Shown piece by piece: positions 4,972 to 60,824 of a DNA stretch of 64,000 bases; position 1 is the stretch's first letter, and every line of letters begins with the position of its first letter. Origin of the DNA: an uncultured Bdellovibrionales bacterium (GTDB taxonomy: Bacteria; Patescibacteriota; Minisyncoccia; Moranbacterales; GWC2-37-73); the NCBI GenBank assembly GCA_964609855.1, contig CAZSTB010000006.1, forward strand, positions 365 through 64,364, given 5' to 3'. The translations under genes were made by a program, and so were the position numbers. The notes beneath the pieces were generated by a model, which saw nothing but the letters and a program-made list of their open reading frames with translations, had not been told where the DNA came from and made no database searches.

Positions 4972-5463
4972 ATGTTTTCGAAAATACTAGCTTTGTTTAC
5001 AATTCCAGGCGTTGTTGTTCACGAGTTTGGTCATCAATTTTTTTGTCATTTAATGAGAGTTAAAGTTCGAGAAGTTTGTTACTTTCGTTTTGGAAATCCG
5101 GCAGGTTACGTAATGCATGATCAGGCGGGAAACTTCGTTCAAGCTTTTTTTATTAGTGCAGGACCGCTTCTTTTCGGATCGCTATTTTCTGCTGTGATGT
5201 TTTATTTTTTTCAGTCTGCAGGCGAATTGGAATGGAGGATGGTTTACATGTGGCTGGGATTTTCAGTGGCGATGCATTGCTTGCCAAGTAGAGGAGATGC
5301 AAAAAGTCTCTGGCAACAGAATTGGTCTCAGGCGAAGAGCAATATCTTGGCAATTTTTGGAATGCCGTTGGTTTTTATTATTTGGGTTTTGAGTATGTTG
5401 AATTTTCTTGTTTTTAATATTAGTTACGCTATTTTACTTTATATGATTTCGCAATATATTTAA
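4972..5463 (+). CDS. putative membrane zinc metallopeptidase (HEXXH, DUF3267-like)
   Basis: HEFGH motif within the first TM segment. Polytopic small protein. Confidence 0.5.
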   Translation: MFSKILALFTIPGVVVHEFGHQFFCHLMRVKVREVCYFRFGNPAGYVMHDQAGNFVQAFFISAGPLLFGSLFSAVMFYFFQSAGELEWRMVYMWLGFSVAMHCLPSRGDAKSLWQQNWSQAKSNILAIFGMPLVFIIWVLSMLNFLVFNISYAILLYMISQYI

Positions 5464-5498
5464 ATTTCCGCGAAACTGAAAAATTTCTAGTATGAAAA

Positions 5499-5530
5499 AG
5501 AAGCAACCTGTTTGGATTGCTTCTTTTTTA
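5499..5530 (+). terminator. rho-independent terminator
   Basis: GAAGCAA-loop-TTGCTTC hairpin followed by TTTTTT, directly after the 4972-5463 stop. Confidence 0.5.
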
Positions 5531-6646: not shown

Positions 6647-6770
6647 CAAGATGAGATAAAAACTTCTTTGAAAAAAGAGGTTTTTATTTTTTTAAAACAA
6701 AATTGATGTTATAATAAAGCTAAGTTAAAATCATCCTTCATTAATGGTACCTTAACAACAGGGGGTTATC

Positions 6771-7313
6771 ATGAGAAATATCGAACGGACCGAGGCGTCT
6801 CAATTTTTGCGGGCAGCTCTGCTCGAAGCTATGCATTCACCCTGCAGTACAGTAAAAGAAGGAATTGTCATAGTCAACGATAACAGAGAAATAATTAAAA
6901 CGGGATACAAGCGATTTGCTTCTCAGCGTGGAATCCTTTGTCGTGGCGGTGGAGAATGTCACAAGAGGGATATGTGGACGAGCTGCCCTGCGGAGCATAC
7001 GTTAAGAGCAACTCTTACGAGCACTTTTCACGATGGGCATTGCTTGAATGAAGCTACGTTATATATGGTTTCTATTGTGGGTGAGCGATTTTATATCGCA
7101 AACAACATCGCATGCTGCAATGTTTGCGAAGCGATAGTCATTCATTCCGGAATTAAGGTAGCGCTTTGGTCACATGGAGAAAAAGTCGTCGGGTGCGTGG
7201 AACATGATACAGCTGATTTGAAAAGATTGAAAATCATGCACATCGTTCAATCTAATGTAAATGTTGGATTTCCGCTTGAAACTTGGGAATCTCAATTTGC
7301 GGTCAATGCATAA
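6771..7313 (+). CDS. cytidine/deoxycytidylate deaminase family protein (CMP/dCMP deaminase zinc-binding-like)
   Basis: CPAEH ... CCNVC spacing resembles the H(A/C)E...PCxxC zinc motif. Assignment tentative. Confidence 0.45.
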   Translation: MRNIERTEASQFLRAALLEAMHSPCSTVKEGIVIVNDNREIIKTGYKRFASQRGILCRGGGECHKRDMWTSCPAEHTLRATLTSTFHDGHCLNEATLYMVSIVGERFYIANNIACCNVCEAIVIHSGIKVALWSHGEKVVGCVEHDTADLKRLKIMHIVQSNVNVGFPLETWESQFAVNA

Positions 7314-7369: not shown

Positions 7370-7930
7370 TTATAGTAAGGTGGGAATTTTTCGAAAATCG
7401 TCTTCAAACAGTGCGCGCGTCTTTTTATTTTGACGAGCCGCAGCTGGATGATGGATGGGAAATAATTTTACTGCCGTCTCACCGATGGATACTTCGAAGA
7501 TTTTTCCATGTACTTGAGAAATTTTAGCATCAGGTAAAAAACAATTCAAAGCAAATCGACCAAGTGTTATGATTATTTTAGGATTGATTATCGCTATTTG
7601 TTTTTCGAGCAGGGGAATGCAAGCAGCAATTTCTTCCGCAAGTGGATCTCGATTTTCTGGCGGTCTACATTTTAAAATATTCGTCAGGTAAACATCGTCT
7701 CGCTTCAAATTTATTGATGCAAGCATTTTATCTAAAATTTTACCACTACTGCCAACAAAGGGAATTCCTGTTTCAGCCTCTTTTTTCCCAGGAGCTTCGC
7801 CGATAAACATTACTTCAGCATCGGTATTACCAGATCCAAAAACTAAAGCTGCTGAATTGCATTTAAGAGGACATCCTGTACAGCCGGAAAGTGTTAATTT
7901 TAAACTGTTTAATTTTTCTTGTTTATTCAT
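7370..7930 (-). CDS. udg: uracil-DNA glycosylase, family 4
   Basis: GEAPG motif, N-terminal CxxCxxxC Fe-S cysteines, and TNILKCRPP motif. Confidence 0.85.
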   Translation of the reverse strand: MNKQEKLNSLKLTLSGCTGCPLKCNSAALVFGSGNTDAEVMFIGEAPGKKEAETGIPFVGSSGKILDKMLASINLKRDDVYLTNILKCRPPENRDPLAEEIAACIPLLEKQIAIINPKIIITLGRFALNCFLPDAKISQVHGKIFEVSIGETAVKLFPIHHPAAARQNKKTRALFEDDFRKIPTLL

Positions 7931-11602: not shown

Positions 11603-12424
11603 TTATCCGCGTATTTTTTTAATGAGTTCAATGTCTTCTTTTACAAAATCATATTCAGTTTCGCAGATCATGGTGATGTCTCTTTCTTTTGCGAAAGCCA
11701 CAATGTTTCTGAAAGCTTCTTCGCCGATCAGACCCTTGCCGAGATGTTCGTGGCGATCTTTGCGCGAACCGAATTCTGTTTTGCTGTCATTGGTGTGAAT
11801 CAGTTTTATTTTATCGAGTCCAAGTTCGGCGTCTATTCTTGCAAGGGTATTTTTAAAGTCGCGCCAATCATAACCTGATGCAAATGAATGTTGGGTGTCG
11901 ATGCAAATTCCCGTGAGTTTCGGATGATTTATTTTTTCTAAGATGTATAAGATTTCCGAAAATTTGTCCCCGATTATTTTTCCTGCTCCGGCGCAATTTT
12001 CAATCAGAAGTTCGGCGCTTCCAGTGTATCCTTCCAATGTTTTGGCGAGCATCTCAACAACTTTGTCGGAAGCTTCTCTCTCGGAAAGTGTTCCCGCACT
12101 TCCAAGATGGGTCATGACATATTTAGCACCAAGAAGACTCGCTCTTTCAAGTTCATCTCGAACCACACTGACACTTCCATGACGGATACGATTATTTTCG
12201 GATGCGAAATTTATATAGTAGGGAGTGTGGACCACGACTTCTTTAATTTTAAATTTTAAATTTGAAATTTTAAATTTATGACAGATCTCATCTGTCAGGG
12301 TTAGTGCTTTTCCTCCTTGTGGCGACCGCGTGAAAATCTGCATGGCTTCGCAGCCGAGTTCAGCGGCTCTTTCAGGGGCATTAAAAACTCCTCCAGCAAT
12401 TGAAACGTGACAACCTATGTACAT
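11603..12424 (-). CDS. nfo: deoxyribonuclease IV (endonuclease IV, AP endonuclease family 2)
   Basis: Full-length similarity pattern: MYIGCHVSIAGG...HxxY...metal ligands. TIM-barrel AP endonuclease 2. Confidence 0.85.
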   Translation of the reverse strand: MYIGCHVSIAGGVFNAPERAAELGCEAMQIFTRSPQGGKALTLTDEICHKFKISNLKFKIKEVVVHTPYYINFASENNRIRHGSVSVVRDELERASLLGAKYVMTHLGSAGTLSEREASDKVVEMLAKTLEGYTGSAELLIENCAGAGKIIGDKFSEILYILEKINHPKLTGICIDTQHSFASGYDWRDFKNTLARIDAELGLDKIKLIHTNDSKTEFGSRKDRHEHLGKGLIGEEAFRNIVAFAKERDITMICETEYDFVKEDIELIKKIRG

Positions 12425-12585
12425 AAATTTCTAATTTCCAATTTCCAATTTCTAATCAATGACTAATGTCTTAATATTCAAACATTAAATCATTAAAAAT
12501 TCAATCAAAATTCGAAATTCATAATTCAAAATTAAGACTTTCTTATCCTATTATACTTTATACGCAATGTAATGAACAATTTATG

Positions 12586-13397: not shown

Positions 13398-13490
13398 TAA
13401 TAGCAGCAAATTTTTAATTTTTAATTTACAATTTTAAATCAATTTATAATTTCTCAATTTATAAATGTTTAAACATTTGTTGATTAAGAT

Positions 13491-13633
13491 TTTATTGTCG
13501 AACGAAGTCGAGCGAAACGAAAATGATTTTTGTTTCCGAGCGAGTGATGACATCAAAAGGTTTAATACCTCGTGGCTTGCCGCGGAAACCCAAAGGGTTC
13601 GGGGCTTGCCCCGGGGTTAATACCTTTTATTTT
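13491..13633 (+). repeat. structured intergenic repeat / candidate ncRNA, copy A
   Basis: About 90% identical to 60682-60824. Two hairpins with compensatory changes between copies. Ends in AATACCTTTTATTT. Confidence 0.7.
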
Positions 13634-13663
13634 AAATTTCAAATTTCAAATTAAAAATTTATT

Positions 13664-15062: not shown

Positions 15063-15191
15063 AGGTTTAAAAATTTTTAATTTTCAATTTCTAATTTTTA
15101 AACAATTCCCAATGACTAAATGTTTTAAGCATTGGAAGTTTTGAAAATTGAATAATGGTTTGAAAATTGAAAATTGTGAATTGAAAATTAT
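15063..15191. repeat. AT-rich spacer with AATTTTC/GAAAATT heptamer repeats and an imperfect CCAATG...CATTGG palindrome
   Basis: Direct inspection: GAAAATTGAAAATTG..., CCAATGACTAAATGTTTTAAGCATTGG. Confidence 0.5.
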
Positions 15192-24977: not shown

Positions 24978-25000
24978 GGAATTAATTTCAATTCGCCAGC

Positions 25001-25037
25001 TGGCGAATCAATTTTCAATTTTCAATTTTCAATTTTC
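25001..25037. repeat. tandem heptamer AATTTTC x5
   Basis: CAATTTTCAATTTTCAATTTTCAATTTTCAAC directly after the virB4 stop and a short palindrome TTCGCCAGCTGGCGAA. Confidence 0.6.
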
Positions 25038-25055
25038 AACGAGTCCATTTATTAC

Positions 25056-27344: not shown

Positions 27345-28310
27345 ATGCGTAAGCAAGGTTTTAAAAAAATAAATTATAAAAAATCAGCAATAATTATTGG
27401 TGTTTTTTTATGTTTTACCGTTTTTAAAATTTCTTTTGCGCAGGAATCTTCACAAATTTTTAGCACCGCAGTGAAGAAAATTATAATCAATGATGAAGGT
27501 CTTGCTTTCCAAGTTCATTCTGAGGCTGAAACAGTCGAACAGTTTTTAAGGGAAAATGAAATCGAGTTAAGCAAAGATGACCAAGTTTTACCGGAAAAAA
27601 CTGAAAAAATATATTCAGGATCGCGAATTTTCATACACCGTGCCAAAAAAATTACCATCAAAGAAGGTGGCAAAGTTAAGGAGGTCATCACCTTTCAAAA
27701 CAATGTAGAAAAGGCTATTTGGGAAAATAAAGACATTGAATTGGGCGCTGATGATATTACCAAGCCAAGCAGACAAGCATTTATTAAGGACGGCTCGGTT
27801 ATAAATATAACGCATGTGCTAATAAAAGAAGAGATTGAACATGAGGATATCGCTTTTAAAACCGTTTCGAATGAGGACGATAAAATGGGGTGGCGTGAAA
27901 AGAAAGTCACGCAAAAAGGCGAAAAAGGTAAAAGAGAAGTGAAATATAAAGTGGTTTATAATGATGGAAAAGAAATTTCTCGAAAAGTTTTAGATAAAAC
28001 TACGCTTAAAGAGCCAGTTGAGGAGATTGTCACCCAGGGAACATATGTTAAAGTAGGAAAGGTTCATACGGGAGCTGCTAGTTGGTATGCATGGACGGGA
28101 ACGATGGCTGCAGCTAATCCTTGGCTTCCGATGGGAAGTTATGTTAGGGTTACAAATAAGGCAAACGGTAAGCAGGTAATTGTTAAAATAAATGACCGTG
28201 GCCCTTTTGGTCCAGGGCGAATAATTGATTTGGATAAAGTTGCTTTTGCACAAATAGCCTCGATCGGCGCAGGAGTTGTGGATGTAAAAATGGAAGTGAT
28301 TATCAATTAG
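27345..28310 (+). CDS. RlpA-like double-psi beta-barrel protein with G5/DUF348-like N-terminal region
   Basis: C-terminal GAASWYAW...PMGSYVRVTN...GKQVIVKINDRGPF motif (RlpA DPBB). N-terminal TM. ATG at 27345 preferred over 27300 because 27300 overlaps comM. Confidence 0.6.
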   Translation: MRKQGFKKINYKKSAIIIGVFLCFTVFKISFAQESSQIFSTAVKKIIINDEGLAFQVHSEAETVEQFLRENEIELSKDDQVLPEKTEKIYSGSRIFIHRAKKITIKEGGKVKEVITFQNNVEKAIWENKDIELGADDITKPSRQAFIKDGSVINITHVLIKEEIEHEDIAFKTVSNEDDKMGWREKKVTQKGEKGKREVKYKVVYNDGKEISRKVLDKTTLKEPVEEIVTQGTYVKVGKVHTGAASWYAWTGTMAAANPWLPMGSYVRVTNKANGKQVIVKINDRGPFGPGRIIDLDKVAFAQIASIGAGVVDVKMEVIIN

Positions 28311-28347
28311 CTTTTAGCTGTTAGTTTATAGCTTTTAGAGAAATTCC

Positions 28348-34592: not shown

Positions 34593-36704
34593 ATGAATTG
34601 GATTTTCAAAAACAAAAACAAAAGAGCAAAGACGCTGCTTGTCGTCTTGTTTTTGGCGTTTGGATTCTCTTTTGTTAGTTTCGATGATGCGAAAGCGGCA
34701 GGTATTTGCGAAAGCGGCAGTACTGAAAAAACTTGCGAATGCTTTAATGGAAGTGCTTCATTAAGTTTTTTTCCGGCCGGACACAATATAAGTGATTTTA
34801 ATGCCCAGTTGACTACAGGTTTTTGTCATCAAGAATCTTGCATGCAATACTGCATGTTTAAATTTCCAGCTACGACTGCAGTTAAATATGACGGGGGAAC
34901 ATTTGGAACAAGCTCAATAAAAAATAGTTCAAGCGCTGTTATATCCGCACCCTCATTATCAGAGCAAGTTTGCGGCGGAACATTGAGCATGTTTAACCCT
35001 TCAACATGGCTGCAATGTGCGCTAATCATGGTTTTGCAACTCGTCGGCTATCTGTTCGCAATAGCGGCGACACTTTTTGCATGGGCAATTGATCCCTCAA
35101 ACGTTTCCGGGCCTAATGGTATTTTGGAAAAACAAGCCATCAAGGACGTGTGGATTATGGTTCGCGATCTTTTGAATATGACCTTTATTTTGATCTTACT
35201 TTTCTCGGCTTTCTGCACAATTTTTCAAATCGATAACTGGGGTCTTAAAAAAGTTTGGCTCAATATTTTGATAAACGCCCTCTTGGTAAATTTTTCCTTT
35301 CCAATTGCGCGTTTTATTATCGATATTTCAAACGTAACTTTTTATTATTTTGTAAAGCATTTGTTCGCATCTACTGGAACCTCAACTGTTACTGGTTCAA
35401 CAATCTTTTCAAGTTTTGCATCCACATCTGGAATCGGCGATTTGTTGCAGCCTGATAAATATGCGGACCATGCAATTCCATATCTGATTGCATCGATAAT
35501 TTTCGTTTTTATTTTCGGAATGACGCTGCTTATTATCGGAGCATTATTCATTGTTCGCCTTGTCGCGCTGGCAATGCTTATCATGTTTTCCCCGATCGGT
35601 TTTGTGGGTTATATTTTTCCTGAAAGTGCCAGTTATGCCAACAAGTGGTGGAAAAATCTTTTTAGCTACTCTTTCTTTGCGCCGATTATGATTTTTGTTA
35701 TGGCGATTTCGCTGCGAATCATGCAAGCCTTGCAGGCGGAGAATATGAGTTCGATGCAAGCGATCAGTGGAGTTAACGCCGTTTCAGATCAACAAGGTTG
35801 GGTGGCAAATGCAGCATTTTACACAATTCCGATTATCATTCTCTGGGGTGGAATGGGAATTGCAAAATCCTCAGGCATTGCCGGAGCGGACACCGTCGTC
35901 AATTCTGTGAAAAAAGGAGGAAAATGGGCTGCCACAAATCTTTCTGGTTACGGCTATATGAAAAAGAATTATGATGCTTACGCTGGAGCCAGAAAGAAAC
36001 GCGTAGAGGAAAAAGATAAGAAACGCTGGGGCGGCAAATTTGGCGATGGCGTAAATGATAAGCAAGATAAGCTATTGGCCAAGCTAGGCTCTGAAGCTGC
36101 GATGAAGCGATACAATAAGAGAAAAGAGACAGGAAATAAGGATGATATTAAAGATGGCGTTGAGGGAGCAGAAAGTAGAACTGCTGATGAATTAAAATCA
36201 CAAATCAAGACTTCTATGAACTCCACAACGCCACTGAGCGATAAGGAAAAAATGGATTATGCTATAAATGCTAAGTTGGCATTAAATCGTGGAGCTAAAT
36301 ATGAATCTGGATTTGAAGAAGATCTTAAGGCTGACATGAAAAACAATTTAACAACTGATTCTAGATTCGCCACATTGCATGCAAGTACTGTGGATCTCGC
36401 AAGGGCAGAGATGAATTTCAATAATCATCCAAAAAATCCTCCAACTGCAACTGGAACTAGTGCAAGCGCGCAGCGAAATCATCAAATTCAAATGGCGAAA
36501 TGGACTGCAGATAGAACCTTGCTGAAAGAAGCACATGAAAATGCAAAGAAGAAAGTCGAGTCAGATGAGAAAAAGATCATTCAAAGCGAAAAAACAAAGC
36601 ATCTCGACAACTTAAGAAAAGCAATTAAAGATGCCGAGGAGGTTGGAAAGATAAATAAACCGGCTCCAACTCCTGCACCTCCTGGCCCGACTCCAACACC
36701 ATAA
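34593..36704 (+). CDS. TrbL/VirB6-like polytopic T4SS membrane protein with Cys-rich N-terminal ectodomain and Pro-rich C-terminal tail
   Basis: Signal peptide plus Cys-rich region, then 6-7 TM helices. Charged Lys/Glu-rich tail ending PAPTPAPPGPTPTP. Promoter GAAAATATGCTATAAT at 34541-34557. Confidence 0.5.
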   Translation: MNWIFKNKNKRAKTLLVVLFLAFGFSFVSFDDAKAAGICESGSTEKTCECFNGSASLSFFPAGHNISDFNAQLTTGFCHQESCMQYCMFKFPATTAVKYDGGTFGTSSIKNSSSAVISAPSLSEQVCGGTLSMFNPSTWLQCALIMVLQLVGYLFAIAATLFAWAIDPSNVSGPNGILEKQAIKDVWIMVRDLLNMTFILILLFSAFCTIFQIDNWGLKKVWLNILINALLVNFSFPIARFIIDISNVTFYYFVKHLFASTGTSTVTGSTIFSSFASTSGIGDLLQPDKYADHAIPYLIASIIFVFIFGMTLLIIGALFIVRLVALAMLIMFSPIGFVGYIFPESASYANKWWKNLFSYSFFAPIMIFVMAISLRIMQALQAENMSSMQAISGVNAVSDQQGWVANAAFYTIPIIILWGGMGIAKSSGIAGADTVVNSVKKGGKWAATNLSGYGYMKKNYDAYAGARKKRVEEKDKKRWGGKFGDGVNDKQDKLLAKLGSEAAMKRYNKRKETGNKDDIKDGVEGAESRTADELKSQIKTSMNSTTPLSDKEKMDYAINAKLALNRGAKYESGFEEDLKADMKNNLTTDSRFATLHASTVDLARAEMNFNNHPKNPPTATGTSASAQRNHQIQMAKWTADRTLLKEAHENAKKKVESDEKKIIQSEKTKHLDNLRKAIKDAEEVGKINKPAPTPAPPGPTPTP

Positions 36705-36717
36705 TAAAAAAACAAAA

Positions 36718-37125
36718 ATGAGTAATAATTTGAGCGCATTGGAAGAATTTGATGCGCAAAGAAAAATTGAGATGCCGCATCTTTTGTATTCGGCAACTGA
36801 CCTGGTAGCGAAAAAAAATATCGCCTATGTTGTGTTGGCAAAAAAAGAAAAAGAGATACTGCTCATTAGTCCAGCTGGCTTCGGCGAGGCAGCTGTTGTC
36901 GCAGGCTTCAGCGAAAAAAATATTGAACATTTTGCCAAGTTTGCATCAAAGGAATGCAAAGAAAGAATGTTTGAAGTAATCAAGAATGATCTGCTTGCTA
37001 AGGATATTTGGGAAATCGCAGAGGCGATGGACGATGATTTAGGCAGAGATTCCAAGTCGCATCGCCAAAGAGTAAGAAAAGTGTTGCAATATATTTATAA
37101 TAATCAAACAGTTTTTCATTTTTGA
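36718..37125 (+). CDS. hypothetical protein
   Basis: 135 aa, no motif. Tightly packed after the virB6-like gene. Confidence 0.4.
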   Translation: MSNNLSALEEFDAQRKIEMPHLLYSATDLVAKKNIAYVVLAKKEKEILLISPAGFGEAAVVAGFSEKNIEHFAKFASKECKERMFEVIKNDLLAKDIWEIAEAMDDDLGRDSKSHRQRVRKVLQYIYNNQTVFHF

Positions 37126-39119
37126 TATCTATGGACTTTAATTTTGCGCAAAACAATTCAGCATCTCAAAAAACTGGTTCCTTGGAGCAGTCTTTTGTCG
37201 GCGTTGTGGAGAATGAAAAACAACGACTGGCGACTGGATATGCAGCTGTTGTTGAAGAAATTCAAGCAAAAAGAAACAAGGAAAATGCAGGTGCGCAAAT
37301 ATTTCCCGCTTCAGTTGCATCTTTACATCCTGATGTTGTTGATTTTTTACTAAATTTTGATTTGGTTTCAGTTTATGATGATATCGCCAAACAAAACAAC
37401 TTGGATGAGAAAGGCCGCAGTAGCTTGCCGCAAATAGTTTGGAAGCTTGTTAGAGAAGGAAATTGGAACGCCTTGGATGAAACGTTAGAAGCTAAAATTC
37501 CCTTGGTGCATTCCGTACATGTAAATGTCGCTAACCTTTTGCAGCAAAATATTTTAGCAAAAGTGAAAGCTCTGTCTGAAAAACCGGTTTCCAGAAAAGG
37601 TATTATCAGCGAAGCTACGAAGAAAATCGTAAGCATTCCGCTGAAGAAAGCTTTGCTTGATTATCCGAAACTTGGAGAGCAAAATGTGACAATCAGTCAG
37701 ATTGAGCTGAAATATTTTCCTACGCCTGTCAGGCCTTCGATTAAGAATTGGATTACAGACTTTCATGATCAGATGGGGGCAATTAAACATTCTCCAATTG
37801 ATCGCGGAAACTATTTGTTCCACAGCGAAAATGGAAAAAAACTTACCTCTCTGGAGCGGCAGAAGCTTTCAATGATTTTGAAAAGTTTAGATGAAGATAC
37901 GAATCTGGATATTGATGCTGAAGCGCAAGTCCTTATATTTGAAATAGAAAAACCGCAAATAAATCCAGTGGCGAATGATCGATATAAAACTGTGGTGAGT
38001 GATAATTTTACTGATGTGCAGAAAAACGTTCCAGCTGAACAGTTAATAAGTCGACCAGTATTGGATTTTGGACAAAGGCAGCAAACTATTGAGCAGGAAA
38101 AGCAGTCTGAAATAGAAAATAGTGAGGAATTACTAAAATCCCGCGAAGAAAAATTGAATAATCTTGGTAAATTTTTTGGCGAAAAAGCTGGCTTGCAGCC
38201 AGAAGTAAAAACGCCTGCGGATGATAACTTAGAACAGGTAGCTAAACCGCAAGTCAAGCCGTTGTCGTCAGAGCAGGCTACAGGCGGCCTTAAGGCTGCG
38301 TTAAATTTCTTTAAATTAAATAAAGTTAAAAATTCCAAATCGGAAGAAAGAGAAAACCAAGTTCCAACTGCGGAAATTATGCAAAAGGATTTATTCAAGT
38401 TGCCAACCTCGAAGCCGCAATTGGGGACTGAAGAATATAATGTAAGAAAAAGTTTTGTTGAGCAGAGTAATGTGGAAGAAAAAAAAGCTCAAGAGCTGCC
38501 GTTTCAAAGCGATATGATTTCAAATGTTAACAATGTAAAATTTTCAAACAGCGACAATATACATTTTTCATCGCCTCAGAAACTGCCTGCAGAGGAAAAA
38601 TTCGCCGCGCCTGCGAAAATGAGCGCCCCTAATTTTGCCTCCAACAGTATGGCATACGTTAGGCCTACAGCAACTTTCAAAGTTCAAGATGTTCCAGCTG
38701 TAGAGCCAGAAATTGTCACCCCTGCGCCAACTTTAGCAAGTCCGCAAATTAAAGCTGATTACGAGATGGCATCAAATTCAAGGATAAGTTCCACCTTGTC
38801 TCCCTCAACTACTATAAGCCGTCCAATTCCAGCTCCAATTCCAACTCCTATATCGGCGCCAATTCAGCAAGTAACTTCAATGACTGAACCAGTAGTTTCT
38901 CCAGTGCCAGTATTTTCTCCGATCGTTGATCTTAAGCGAGACTCAGCGCCAGTCCCCGTTGAAACAACTCAGCAAATTAGCAGCGAAGAGCATTCCATTA
39001 AAAAGGCGACTCCTGCAATCGCAAGAAATCCATTCAGAATCGTTCCAAGAAATTACTCAGAGGGAATTGAAGATGAAAAAATTTCAGCTCCAAAAAATGT
39101 TGTTAATCTAAAAGAATAA
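37122..39119 (+). CDS. hypothetical large protein with low-complexity Pro/Ser-rich C-terminus
   Basis: 665 aa. ATGA overlap with the previous gene. No TM and no catalytic motif. Confidence 0.5.
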   Translation: MISMDFNFAQNNSASQKTGSLEQSFVGVVENEKQRLATGYAAVVEEIQAKRNKENAGAQIFPASVASLHPDVVDFLLNFDLVSVYDDIAKQNNLDEKGRSSLPQIVWKLVREGNWNALDETLEAKIPLVHSVHVNVANLLQQNILAKVKALSEKPVSRKGIISEATKKIVSIPLKKALLDYPKLGEQNVTISQIELKYFPTPVRPSIKNWITDFHDQMGAIKHSPIDRGNYLFHSENGKKLTSLERQKLSMILKSLDEDTNLDIDAEAQVLIFEIEKPQINPVANDRYKTVVSDNFTDVQKNVPAEQLISRPVLDFGQRQQTIEQEKQSEIENSEELLKSREEKLNNLGKFFGEKAGLQPEVKTPADDNLEQVAKPQVKPLSSEQATGGLKAALNFFKLNKVKNSKSEERENQVPTAEIMQKDLFKLPTSKPQLGTEEYNVRKSFVEQSNVEEKKAQELPFQSDMISNVNNVKFSNSDNIHFSSPQKLPAEEKFAAPAKMSAPNFASNSMAYVRPTATFKVQDVPAVEPEIVTPAPTLASPQIKADYEMASNSRISSTLSPSTTISRPIPAPIPTPISAPIQQVTSMTEPVVSPVPVFSPIVDLKRDSAPVPVETTQQISSEEHSIKKATPAIARNPFRIVPRNYSEGIEDEKISAPKNVVNLKE

Positions 39120-39297
39120 AAGGTATTGTATCCCAGGGCAGAGCTCTGGACTCCCTTGGGCCCACGCAGCCCGTCTCGCCCGAGGCTTTGCCGAGGGGGA
39201 CAGAGCTGTGAGGTGCCTGCCCTGTCTACCGATAGGCAGGCGGTAGGCAGGGAAATGGAATATTAATTTTCATTTCGCTCGCTTCGTTTGATAATAA
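39113..39297 (-). repeat. structured intergenic repeat / candidate ncRNA, diverged copy C (GC-rich core)
   Basis: Minus-strand 5' module AAACGAAGCGAGCGAAATGAAAAT... and 3' end ...AATACCTTTTATT match copies A and B. The 120-nt core is about 65% GC. Confidence 0.55.
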
Positions 39298-39391
39298 AAC
39301 AATATCTTTGATTTGAGATTTTTTATCAAGTGTTTGCAAGGGAGAAAATCGACTGCTTGAGCGAGAAAGGTGCTTTAAGTTAAATATAAGA

Positions 39392-39676
39392 TTGGAAAGT
39401 ATGCTTGAATTCATAAATATAGCACAGGCCGGAATTATTAGTGATGCACCCAGTGTTTCGAGTCTGGGAATTAAGATTTTAAATTTTTTGTTGTCAGTAG
39501 TTGGATTTTTTGCTATAATTTCTTTAGTGTTGGCAGGGATAAAATACTTTTTTGCACTTGGTGATAAGAAGCAAATTGAAAATGCAAAAAATGCCGCGAC
39601 GGCTGCCGTTTGGGGAATTGCGCTTGCGATGGGAGGAATGATCCTGATAAGGTTTATTGGACAATTTTTTCAATAG
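39392..39676 (+). CDS. T4SS pilin-like (TrbC/VirB2-like) small protein
   Basis: 94 aa. Two-helix module with KYFFALGDKKQIENAKN...IG motif. Confidence 0.45.
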   Translation: MESMLEFINIAQAGIISDAPSVSSLGIKILNFLLSVVGFFAIISLVLAGIKYFFALGDKKQIENAKNAATAAVWGIALAMGGMILIRFIGQFFQ

Positions 39677-39754
39677 CACTAGCGAATGATAATATAACGA
39701 GATTTTGGGAAAAAAATATATAAAAAATAAAAACTAGGAAAGGAGGTGTAATTT

Positions 39755-40108
39755 ATGAACATTGTTAAAAAATTTGTATACGGAATCGCTTCAATTATCG
39801 TGGTGTTGCCGACAACCGTGGGAGCTCAACTTCAGACACCTGAAGGAACAGGTCTTCCAGCGGGAAGTGTGATAAATATCATAACCAATGGAATGAATTA
39901 TCTTTTGATTCTCGTTGGTGTTCTTGGAGTTATCGGATTCGTTATCGCTGGTATCATTTATTTGACTGCAGCTGGCGACGAAGATCAGATAGAAAGAGGA
40001 AAGAGAACTATGATCAATTCTATCATTGGAATCATCGTAGCGCTTTTGGGAATCATTGTTTTGACAGCCGTAAAAAGTATGCTTGGGGGAACTGATAAAA
40101 CTTTCTAG
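39755..40108 (+). CDS. T4SS pilin-like small protein
   Basis: Strong RBS AGGAAAGGAGGT. Motif IYLTAAGDEDQIERGKR...IIG. Confidence 0.5.
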   Translation: MNIVKKFVYGIASIIVVLPTTVGAQLQTPEGTGLPAGSVINIITNGMNYLLILVGVLGVIGFVIAGIIYLTAAGDEDQIERGKRTMINSIIGIIVALLGIIVLTAVKSMLGGTDKTF

Positions 40109-40129
40109 TTCTGCAAGTTACATTTTGTA

Positions 40130-40166
40130 CAAGCAAAAAACAACCTTAAGGGTTGTTTTTTGCTTG
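40130..40166 (+). terminator. rho-independent terminator
   Basis: CAAGCAAAAAACAACC-TTAA-GGGTTGTTTTTTGCTTG. Confidence 0.6.
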
Positions 40167-40328
40167 CGTAAAAATTATAAGACCTATATTTATATATACA
40201 CTTTTACTGAAAATATGCTATAATGAATATGAAAATATCTTAAAAATTTATTCTTCCGTTGTTTTTTGATCAGCTACGCTTGCTATTGAATTAGAAAGAT
40301 AGCTTTTGAAAAAAAATAAAAAATAAAA

Positions 40329-40784
40329 ATGAAAGTACAAAATAAGATTCTGTCACTAATTGTTTTCTCATTTGTCTTTTTTGCGCAAGTCCTGCCAGTA
40401 CTTGCTGGTCCAGAATGGAATGCATCAGTCGGGCCAGATGGAAATGTGGGTTTTCAAATAGGTACACAACAGGGTCTTAATGCTCTCAATGGAAATAATG
40501 CTGACGCAGCAATGAATAATCCATATGGCTTGCCGGGTGGAAGTATTTTGGATATAATTTCAAACCTCTTGTTTTGGCTGCTGGCTATTTTTTCCGTACT
40601 AGGAATCATTGGCTTTTTGATTTCTGGAATCTTGTATCTTCTGGCTGGTGCGGATGAGGATAATGCAAAAAAGGGAAAAGAGGGCATGAAAGCTTCAATT
40701 ATTGGAATCATTGTCGGTCTTTCAGGTTATGTTATCATGCAGGCAGTTGGAATATTTTTACGCGGAGATACGACAATGTTCTAA
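40329..40784 (+). CDS. T4SS pilin-like protein
   Basis: Signal peptide. Motif LYLLAGADEDNAKKGKE...IIG. Promoter GAAAATATGCTATAAT at 40210-40226. Confidence 0.5.
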   Translation: MKVQNKILSLIVFSFVFFAQVLPVLAGPEWNASVGPDGNVGFQIGTQQGLNALNGNNADAAMNNPYGLPGGSILDIISNLLFWLLAIFSVLGIIGFLISGILYLLAGADEDNAKKGKEGMKASIIGIIVGLSGYVIMQAVGIFLRGDTTMF

Positions 40785-47141: not shown

Positions 47142-47145
47142 GGCA

Positions 47146-47263
47146 GGAATTAGGAATTAGGAATTAGGAATTAGGAAAATTCAAAATAAAAAACACCATC
47201 AAGGTGTTTTTTATTTTCTCTGAATTTTGCTACAACCTACAACCTAATTCCTAATGCCTAGGA
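47146..47263. repeat. GGAATTA x4 tandem heptamers, inverted partial copy, enclosing a bidirectional terminator
   Basis: GGAATTAGGAATTAGGAATTAGGAATTAGG ... AACACC-ATCAA-GGTGTT ... CCTAATTCCTAATGCCTAGG. Confidence 0.5.
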
Positions 47264-50730: not shown

Positions 50731-50965
50731 TGATACAATTTTGAATTTCGAATTTCCAATTTTGAATAAAATTATGATGATCAAATGTTTCAAGCATTCG
50801 AAAATTTATTTATTTGGAGTTGATTTAAAATTAAAAATTTAAAATTAAAAATTTTCGTCTTGTAATCAAGACAGTTGTGTATAACTAAATTTGCTTTATC
50901 TGCAACAAAAAGAGTATAATCGGGTAAGTGAGATAAACATAAAACTAGAAAGGATGGTGACTACT

Positions 50966-60681: not shown

Positions 60682-60824
60682 TTTATTGTCGAACGAAGTC
60701 GAGCGAAATGAAAATGAATTTTCGTTTCCGAGCGAGTGATGACATCAAAAGGTTTAATACCTCGCGGCGGGCCGCGAAAACCCAGGGGGTTTGGGGCTTG
60801 CCCCGGGGTTAATACCTTTTATTT
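60682..60824 (+). repeat. structured intergenic repeat / candidate ncRNA, copy B
   Basis: About 90% identical to 13491-13633. ORF-track entries 60606-60812 and 60736-60960 overlap it and are judged spurious. Confidence 0.7.

Follow-up and report, generated by a model that had tools for sequence, protein, structure and literature searches.

A GC-rich intergenic island of a Moranbacterales contig as a probable decayed PATE-like element of IS200 origin

What kind of element forms the most GC-rich intergenic island in a 64,000-nt stretch of Moranbacterales DNA? The stretch, referred to below as the window, covers positions 365 to 64,364 of contig CAZSTB010000006.1 (assembly GCA_964609855.1), which is deposited under the name of an uncultured Bdellovibrionales bacterium. 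The island lies on the minus strand at positions 39115-39298, and it is the third copy, here called copy C, of a repeat whose other two copies are A (13491..13631) and B (60682..60823), both on the plus strand. A preliminary description had presented it as an inverted and diverged member of this family, had argued from its GC richness that it was unlikely to be neutral, and had asked for strand-specific RNA-seq and for a comparison with known RNAs. We find that the ends of the family match those of an IS200-group insertion sequence (IS), and that copy C is probably a decayed, non-autonomous relative of the palindrome-associated transposable elements (PATEs), derived from an IS with a Y1/HUH transposase, TnpA.

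Membership of copy C in the repeat family is established by several comparisons. On the minus strand the copy starts with TTTATTATCAAACGAAGCGAGCGAAATGAAAATTAATATTCCATTTCC and ends with GATACAATACCTTTTATT, and in local searches and alignments both ends align with A and B, their order and orientation agreeing. When a profile of the 5′ module was made from the sequences of 75 other copies alone, C being left out, copy C scored E=6.6e-12, and three copies only were found in the window. The 3′ 55 nt match the copy in another locus, L089, at 89% identity (pairwise match, E=2e-9 in 1 Mb). A 3′-domain profile rebuilt without window sequences missed copy C, and an earlier score of E=3.5e-8 was partly circular. 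Copies A and B are intact long forms of the GTC subtype with rod and CUUG hairpins, scoring 67.9 and 68.5 bits, respectively, with a covariance model. The core of copy C (element positions 49-166) has a GC content of 68.6%, and no longer stretch with 65% GC or more exists in the window, for which we measured 38.3% overall compared with the 35% stated earlier for the genome. As described before, the island overlaps the stop codon of a 665-aa gene (37122..39119, plus strand), whose TAA at 39117-39119 lies within the terminal TTATT of copy C, and it is antisense both to this gene and to the pilin genes downstream, the two neighbours being co-oriented.

The family was collected with searches of increasing sensitivity. 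A pattern search for the 5′ module returned 26 true copies, several per genome, in metagenome-assembled genomes of Moranbacteria/Patescibacteria with GC contents of 36-58%, and a degenerate pattern added 85 metagenome loci (loci and contigs are cited here by L numbers). With the covariance model, which was built from short forms of the repeat, 116 copies in ~95 distinct contexts were found at E<1e-5; their density reaches 3-4 copies per 8-14 kb. The copies are modular, 85-215 nt in length, and consist of TTTATT, a 66-nt rod, a linker rich in A, the hairpin GGGUUYAAUACCC and a tail with TTAT(T) at its end. In the long forms three hairpins, H1, H2 and H3, are placed between two copies of the GGUUYAAUACC motif, while about half of all copies are short forms without the CTTG-loop hairpins. 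The rod, which is the most strongly conserved part of the family, is formed by a 5-bp helix, P1, followed by invariant G/A internal loops and a hairpin, P2. P1 covaries (UUGUC/GACAA, UUACC/GGUAA and UUAUC/GAUAU), and H1 and H3 also show compensatory changes. The U-A pair that had been noted in the first hairpin of copy C is indeed a compensatory state, with CG, UA, AU and UG counted 44, 30, 4 and 2 times across the family. In the 3′ domain G.U pairs exceed A.C mismatches by 24 to 3, which indicates that one strand is the folded strand. Among 93 non-redundant copies, element positions 1-6 are conserved at 83-100% and TTATT at 97-100%, and the flank 5′ of the element shows a fading T-run only, with no conserved position-specific signal.

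The source of the 3′ domain is found in autonomous IS200-group copies. Their tnpA genes were first located by tblastn with IS608 TnpA as the query, and the hit was then verified by Pfam and with real homologues. Contig L043, which also has a copy of the family, contains a 157-aa open reading frame (ORF) assigned to Pfam Y1_Tnp (IS200-like transposase, E=2e-33), and a partial second tnpA copy lies at the edge of L111, again together with family copies. The ends of eight autonomous copies (L043 and close homologues on other contigs) were defined by their different flanks. They read TTTATT/...GGGTTTAATACC-hairpin...tnpA...hairpin...TTATT/, where the slashes mark the boundaries and the hairpin loop is CTTG or CTCTG. 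On the left the copies are flanked by TTTATT or T(T/G)AAT. Their left end is CTCTT.. GGGTTNAATACC-CCGCGG-CTTG-CCGCGG or carries CCGTGG-CTCTG-CCACGG instead, and the right end consists of ..ATACC, a hairpin with the same loop and ~9 nt ending in TTATT or TCATT, beyond which copies in different contexts diverge. These end sequences, taken from the left end (GGGTTAATACCCCGCGGCTTGCCGCGGA) and from the hairpins of the right end, match 27-33 loci of the family, inside the 3′ domain, with 28/29 nt identical in L045; the right-end hairpin of L043 agrees with copy A (13563-13584) at 21/22 nt. Such alignments identify the 3′ domain as homologous to the end hairpins of an IS200-group insertion sequence, namely the GGGTTNAATACC hairpin followed by hairpins with CTTG or CTCTG loops. 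What sets the family apart from plain IS ends is the 66-nt rod, which lies 3′ of the left cleavage site and ahead of the first hairpin. Plain PATEs of ~90 nt without a rod occur in L066 and L079.

By definition, elements of the IS200/IS605 group have subterminal hairpins that are recognised, pass through single-stranded intermediates and insert 3′ of a particular tetra- or pentanucleotide (PMC3597680), and PATEs are their gene-less derivatives (PMC10055086; also PMC3119063). The family has the features of PATEs: it is present in many copies without coding capacity (the only ORFs across A and B do not share a frame, and an ATG is missing from most copies), keeps the left- and right-end subterminal hairpins of the IS, appears to share with the autonomous IS the short target TTATT, 3′ of which it would sit, and has a cognate Y1 TnpA (L043, L111), autonomous tnpA copies being rare in the same genomes. 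Terminal inverted repeats, as expected of a classical miniature inverted-repeat transposable element, were not found in the family, with scores at or below those of shuffled sequences. From the left-flank TTATT, which is shared with the autonomous copies, and from the TTATT at the element end we infer the junction. The family differs from PATEs in the extra rod, which is absent from the autonomous copies and the plain PATEs of the same genomes, and in its large share of short forms; no TnpB or omega-RNA is evident. With IS200, IS608 and ISDra2 (PMC3597680) it has in common the subterminal imperfect hairpins on one strand, the probable insertion 3′ of a tetra- or pentanucleotide and the cognate Y1_Tnp protein. 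In contrast to these elements, neither copy C nor the family carries tnpA, and the replication-strand bias is not significant. The putative target also differs, being TTATT or T(T/G)AAT here but TTAC for IS608 and TTGAT for ISDra2. The family is new within a known class and ordinary in kind; an abundant IS200-derived non-autonomous family in the streamlined candidate phyla radiation (Patescibacteria) is described neither in Rfam nor in the literature searched.

By analogy with the established "peel-and-paste" mechanism of IS200/IS605 elements, TnpA provided in trans would bind both top-strand hairpins and cut 3′ of TTATT at each end. The single-stranded circle released in this way would then be pasted 3′ of another TTATT in single-stranded DNA. 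Insertion beside a gene whose stop lies in AATAA would restore that stop, the element's own end being TTATT. The placement of the copies is consistent with these steps. In ~16 of 95 copies the TAA of a convergent gene falls exactly within the terminal TTAT, and copy B holds the stop of the convergent ThiI gene in its terminal TTATT; many copies lie directly 3′ of a terminator hairpin, the T-tail of which merges with TTTATT. Both arrangements would be explained by an element that ends in its own target TTATT, a property that suggests harmless seating on stop codons.

Overall, the family behaves as dispersed, once-mobile DNA. In ~1 Mb of loci no recurrent neighbour gene was found, the neighbours being unrelated housekeeping genes, and the orientation of copies shows no significant bias relative to the gene strand. 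The family was not found in viral contig, phage and plasmid collections. At one orthologous intergenic site the window has a terminator only, L114 has one copy, and L030 has two copies that are both oriented opposite to that of L114. In L030/L055 (7431-7916), a small nucleotidyltransferase (MNT-like) gene lies between two copies of equal orientation, and the terminal TTAT of the second copy supplies the TAA of this gene. Logan short-read contigs of the same strain as the window (L119-L123) end within copies B and C. The distance is 24 nt past the ThiI stop for B and, for C, 175-193 nt ahead of the first pilin gene; the breaks show that the repeats fragment assemblies of this organism. The transposon reading thus explains copies A and B together with the assembly breaks at their sites. 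Near relatives of the window genome were not found in the collections searched, where the best match does not exceed ~75% nucleotide identity.

Copy C is not a diverged copy of the A/B type, as had been supposed, and by alignment it is a member of a separate, conserved subtype, recognised by the P1 strand UUAUC and by UCUG loops. The intact copy of L089, with which it is collinear, has the same P1 strand and the same loops. The CUCUG loops of this subtype are those of the low-GC IS variant, and both this and the A/B subtype are present in L077, L089 and L110. The last of these also contains a head-to-head chimera (7780-7871, minus strand), in which a 5′ module of the UUAUC subtype is fused at P2 to an inverted 5′ module of the UUGUC subtype.

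Read along the minus strand, copy C begins with the target-type motif TTTATT (39293..39298), 3′ of which the element would have inserted in IS200/IS605 terms. It is followed by the 5′ strand of the rod (39277..39292), where alignment to the covariance model and family conservation place the P1 strand (UU)AUC and the invariant purine-rich AAACGAAGCGAGC, and by the aligned hairpin P2 (39252..39276, GAAAUGAAAAUUAAUAUUCCAUUUC) with the U-A pair and one A.C mismatch. Next comes M1 (39215..39250), a CCUGCC...GGCAGG palindrome that was delimited by alignment with L089, L009 and L045 and carries a second, inverted M1 nested in its loop (39221-39240). The 5′ arm and loop of H1 (39201..39210, CACAGC-UCUG), which is equivalent to the IS left-end hairpin and has one A.C mismatch, are separated from the 3′ arm (39163..39169, CUGCGUG) by M2 (39170..39200), a 31-nt GC-rich module (UCCCCCUCGGCAAAGCCUCGGGCGAGACGGG) in the H1 loop. 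The small middle hairpin H2 (39149..39162, GGCCCAAGGGAGUC) is collinear with A, B and L089. The copy is completed by H3 (39133..39149, CCAGAG-CUCUG-CCCUGG), equivalent to the IS right-end hairpin and again with one A.C mismatch, and by the 3′ tail GAUACAAUACCUUUUAUU (39115..39132), the last bases of which are the TTATT that holds the TAA stop.

Altogether, three nested GC-rich palindromic modules have hit copy C. The M1 block stands in place of ~29 nt that comprise the 3′ strand of the rod and the first GGUUUAAUACC end hairpin, together with which the AAUACC guide region was deleted; its site at the P2/rod junction is also the insertion site in L024 and L045. M2 is 92.6% identical over 27 nt to the module at the same site in L009/L110, a site that is also used in L058, and it has a free-standing copy in L104. 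The 69% GC core results from the stacking of the nested palindromes, M2 and the hairpin modules. The centre of the island had been described as replaced as a whole; ~60 nt of it are in fact collinear with the 3′ domain of A and B, and the replacement is limited to the remainder, formed by the three inserted modules. The arms quoted for a long interrupted helix (CAGGGCAGAGCTCTG ... CAGAGCT-GTGAGGTG-CCTGCCCTG) and for a GCCTGCC...GGCAGGC hairpin are present in the sequence. The helix does appear in the minimum-energy fold, as a consequence of the palindromic loop CAGAGCUCUG and of an arm of the inserted M1 palindrome, but the comparative data favour the local hairpins H1 and H3. Nor need the GC richness imply selection, since it consists of transposon-end hairpins and of GC-rich palindromic modules that are also free-standing elsewhere.

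The damage to copy C is also seen in its score with the core model, 21 bits compared with 68 for A and B. A mobilisable PATE needs intact left- and right-end hairpins with 5′ guide regions, which copy C no longer has. With the first end hairpin and the 3′ strand of the rod lost, and with one A.C mismatch each in P2, H1 and H3 on the element strand, copy C has most likely become a fossil that no longer moves. The most GC-rich intergenic island of the window would therefore be the remnant of a transposon and not an RNA gene, which removes a false lead.

Several observations weigh against the derivation from an IS200-group element. No tnpA was found within the 64-kb window, and the rod is not present in any autonomous copy seen. 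The short forms have none of the CTTG hairpins that TnpA would bind, so that they must either have arisen by deletion or be mobile by some other route. The rod, with its invariant purine loops, is conserved beyond the obvious needs of transposition. GC skew is positive on the element strand in 44 of 76 copies (44:32, p=0.2), which is the predicted direction but not significant, and copy C itself is oriented contrary to the predicted lagging-strand-template bias. A pair of filled and empty sites was not found either, as look-ups with exact proteins returned short contigs ending inside B and C.

The conservation of the rod brings in the first alternative, in which the family is primarily a functional structured RNA and copy C a variant or pseudogene of it. 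The candidates would be a multi-copy small RNA or ribonucleoprotein scaffold, a PATE-borne guide-RNA-like scaffold of the kind found in PATEs with omega-RNAs, or an analogue of the IS200 5′tnpA small RNA. Covariation in the rod is strong, with 94% of positions paired compared with 38-60% in slid controls and double changes in 18 of 24 pairs; on the element strand, but not on the other, the invariant G/A loops would give tandem sheared G.A pairs; the rod is kept over the whole range of genome GC contents, from 36 to 58%; and the GC-module insertions are mainly in loops. There are also precedents, as PATEs are reported often to encode omega-RNAs (PMC10055086) and the left end of IS200 gives a regulatory small RNA in Salmonella (PMC12594629). 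On the other side, no conserved promoter was found within or before the element (the upstream flanks have no position-specific signal and promoter scans were inconsistent), the orientation relative to neighbour genes is near-random, and the ratio of G.U to A.C in the rod, 35 to 22, is indecisive for the choice of strand. Several copies including C have no rod 3′ strand. In addition, there is no Rfam match, omega-RNA/HEARO included, no recurrent TnpB-/IscB-like protein or TnpB-sized protein cluster in ~1 Mb of loci, and the rod is at the left end, whereas omega-RNAs are found at the right end. As an account of the whole family, a structured RNA is doubtful. Within the transposon derivation, we tentatively consider, as an improbable extension, that the rod is a functional cargo spread by the PATE family in Moranbacteria genomes at about one copy per 20 kb. 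It could then act as a structured RNA of a new kind, whether a small RNA that binds protein, a guide-RNA-like scaffold or a counterpart of the IS200 5′tnpA regulator, or, alternatively, as a new single-stranded-DNA recognition module for the transposase, and the precise nesting of GC-rich palindromes in hairpin loops would reflect selection keeping the fold.

A role of copy C on the opposite strand, as a plus-strand cis element of the type IV secretion system (T4SS)/pilin cluster, is unlikely. It would act behind the 665-aa gene as a stable hairpin block, terminator or site of processing, and carry an outward promoter for the pilin genes. The fold of copy C is modest on both strands and better on the plus strand (z-scores of -1.4 for the element strand and -2.6 for the plus strand), where the three A.C defects become G.U pairs. 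A promoter-like TTTTCA-17-GATAAT is present at 39267-39295 (+), ~100 nt before the first pilin gene, and the copy lies between co-oriented genes. However, three A.C events have a chance of ~1 in 8, and the promoter match is 9/12, specific for the subtype of copy C and within the range of shuffled sequences. A scan for intrinsic terminators (GC-rich stem and T-run) found none within A, B and C, including any terminator-like plus-strand site in C. Across the family, the type of mismatch is independent of the strand that is read from the neighbour genes (p=0.64).

It appears still less probable that the family is a system of repetitive extragenic palindromes (REP) and bacterial interspersed mosaic elements (BIME), served by a domesticated REP-associated tyrosine transposase (RAYT, TnpA-REP) and not by a transposing IS200. 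The likeness to such systems (PMC8266576, PMC3479197) lies in dispersed, hairpin-forming intergenic repeats concentrated at gene 3′ ends and in related HUH Y1 enzymes. A source annotation names close TnpA homologues "REP element-mobilizing transposase RayT", and the M1 and M3 palindromes that invaded copy C look REP-like, small GC-rich palindromes of this kind being scattered through the same genomes. Yet the tnpA genes have IS-like ends and occur as identical copies in different flanks, as expected of a mobile IS and not of a single-copy RAYT with REPs on either side. The units of the family are modular, 85-215 nt long and have IS-type ends, unlike REPs of 20-40 nt with a conserved GTAG head, and the RayT label comes from automatic naming and not from a test.

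Other modular intergenic repeats include pneumococcal BOX, enterobacterial ERIC and neisserial Correia elements. The family resembles them in size, in long and short forms produced by internal modules, in stable predicted hairpins, and in a location between genes where mRNA ends may be affected. ERIC and Correia elements differ from it in having terminal inverted repeats and TA duplications, and none of the three is known to derive from IS200 ends.

Finally, a known RNA (SRP, 6S, tmRNA, RNase P, riboswitch or ribozyme) or a chance resemblance to A and B is effectively refuted, since Rfam gave no match at gathering thresholds over the whole window and noise only at E<=10 around C and A (the weak C/D-box sR16 at E=0.32 over GUGAUGA in copy A being an example), ARAGORN found four tRNAs only and no tmRNA in the window, and the similarity of copy C to the family has E=6.6e-12 and 2e-9. 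The exclusion of SRP, 6S and tmRNA that the preliminary description had called for is thereby supplied, even at E<=10. The sR16 candidate is not conserved in other subtypes. Hammerhead (CUGAUGA), K-turn, sarcin-ricin, tRNA-like/T-loop (GGUUYAAUACC) and integron attC boxes were compared by eye, and none fits across subtypes; in the case of the T-loop, the hairpin is part of the IS left end.

The surroundings of copy C form a T4SS-like cluster (window 34593-40784). It includes a TrbL/VirB6-like protein of 703 aa and two proteins without a Pfam family, of 135 aa and 665 aa, the latter encoded by the gene that ends in copy C. Beyond copy C the cluster ends with three T4SS_pilin paralogues of 91/94, 117 and 151 aa.

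Three contigs that carry the family, L012, L019 and L021, are labelled "uncultured Bdellovibrionales". IF-2 of L012 has 59-73% amino-acid identity to IF-2 of the window, with the same gene order. All three are probably mis-binned or mislabelled Moranbacteria.

The small GC-rich modules (M1 to M5) are themselves repeated, with copies that stand alone, lie in the loops of terminators or are nested in one another. These palindromic modules, including M1 (CCTGCCTACCGGCAGGCAGG), M3 (TCCGCCAGCTGGCGGA), M4, M5 and the 31-nt M2, also nest in the hairpin loops of PATEs. Loci with such modules are L001, L003, L006, L012, L070, L071, L077, L084, L092, L096 and L104. In the window, a perfect GC-rich and M3-like palindrome, TTCGCCAGCTGGCGAA, lies directly after a stop codon (24992-25039), with (TCAATTT) x4.6 behind it. 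Short arrays of AT-rich 7-nt units in tandem, ~4.5 units each (AATTTTA, TCAATTT, ATTTCAA and similar), were noted in many intergenic regions. Those of the window are at 12245-12277, 12426-12456, 12505-12533, 13409-13466, 13629-13660, 15072-15101, 15160-15189, 25008-25039, 28307-28338, 47145-47177, 50737-50767 and 50823-50854. Two of the arrays flank copy A, and similar heptads flank GC modules in L048, L092 and L096. In L070, a GC-rich structured unit (...CTCCCCTCGTG-[M1]-AACAAACTTACCTGCCCG...GGCGGGGAACTTTTGATT) is present in two copies 1.4 kb apart (5340-5530 and 6750-6950); it is unrelated to the rod family.

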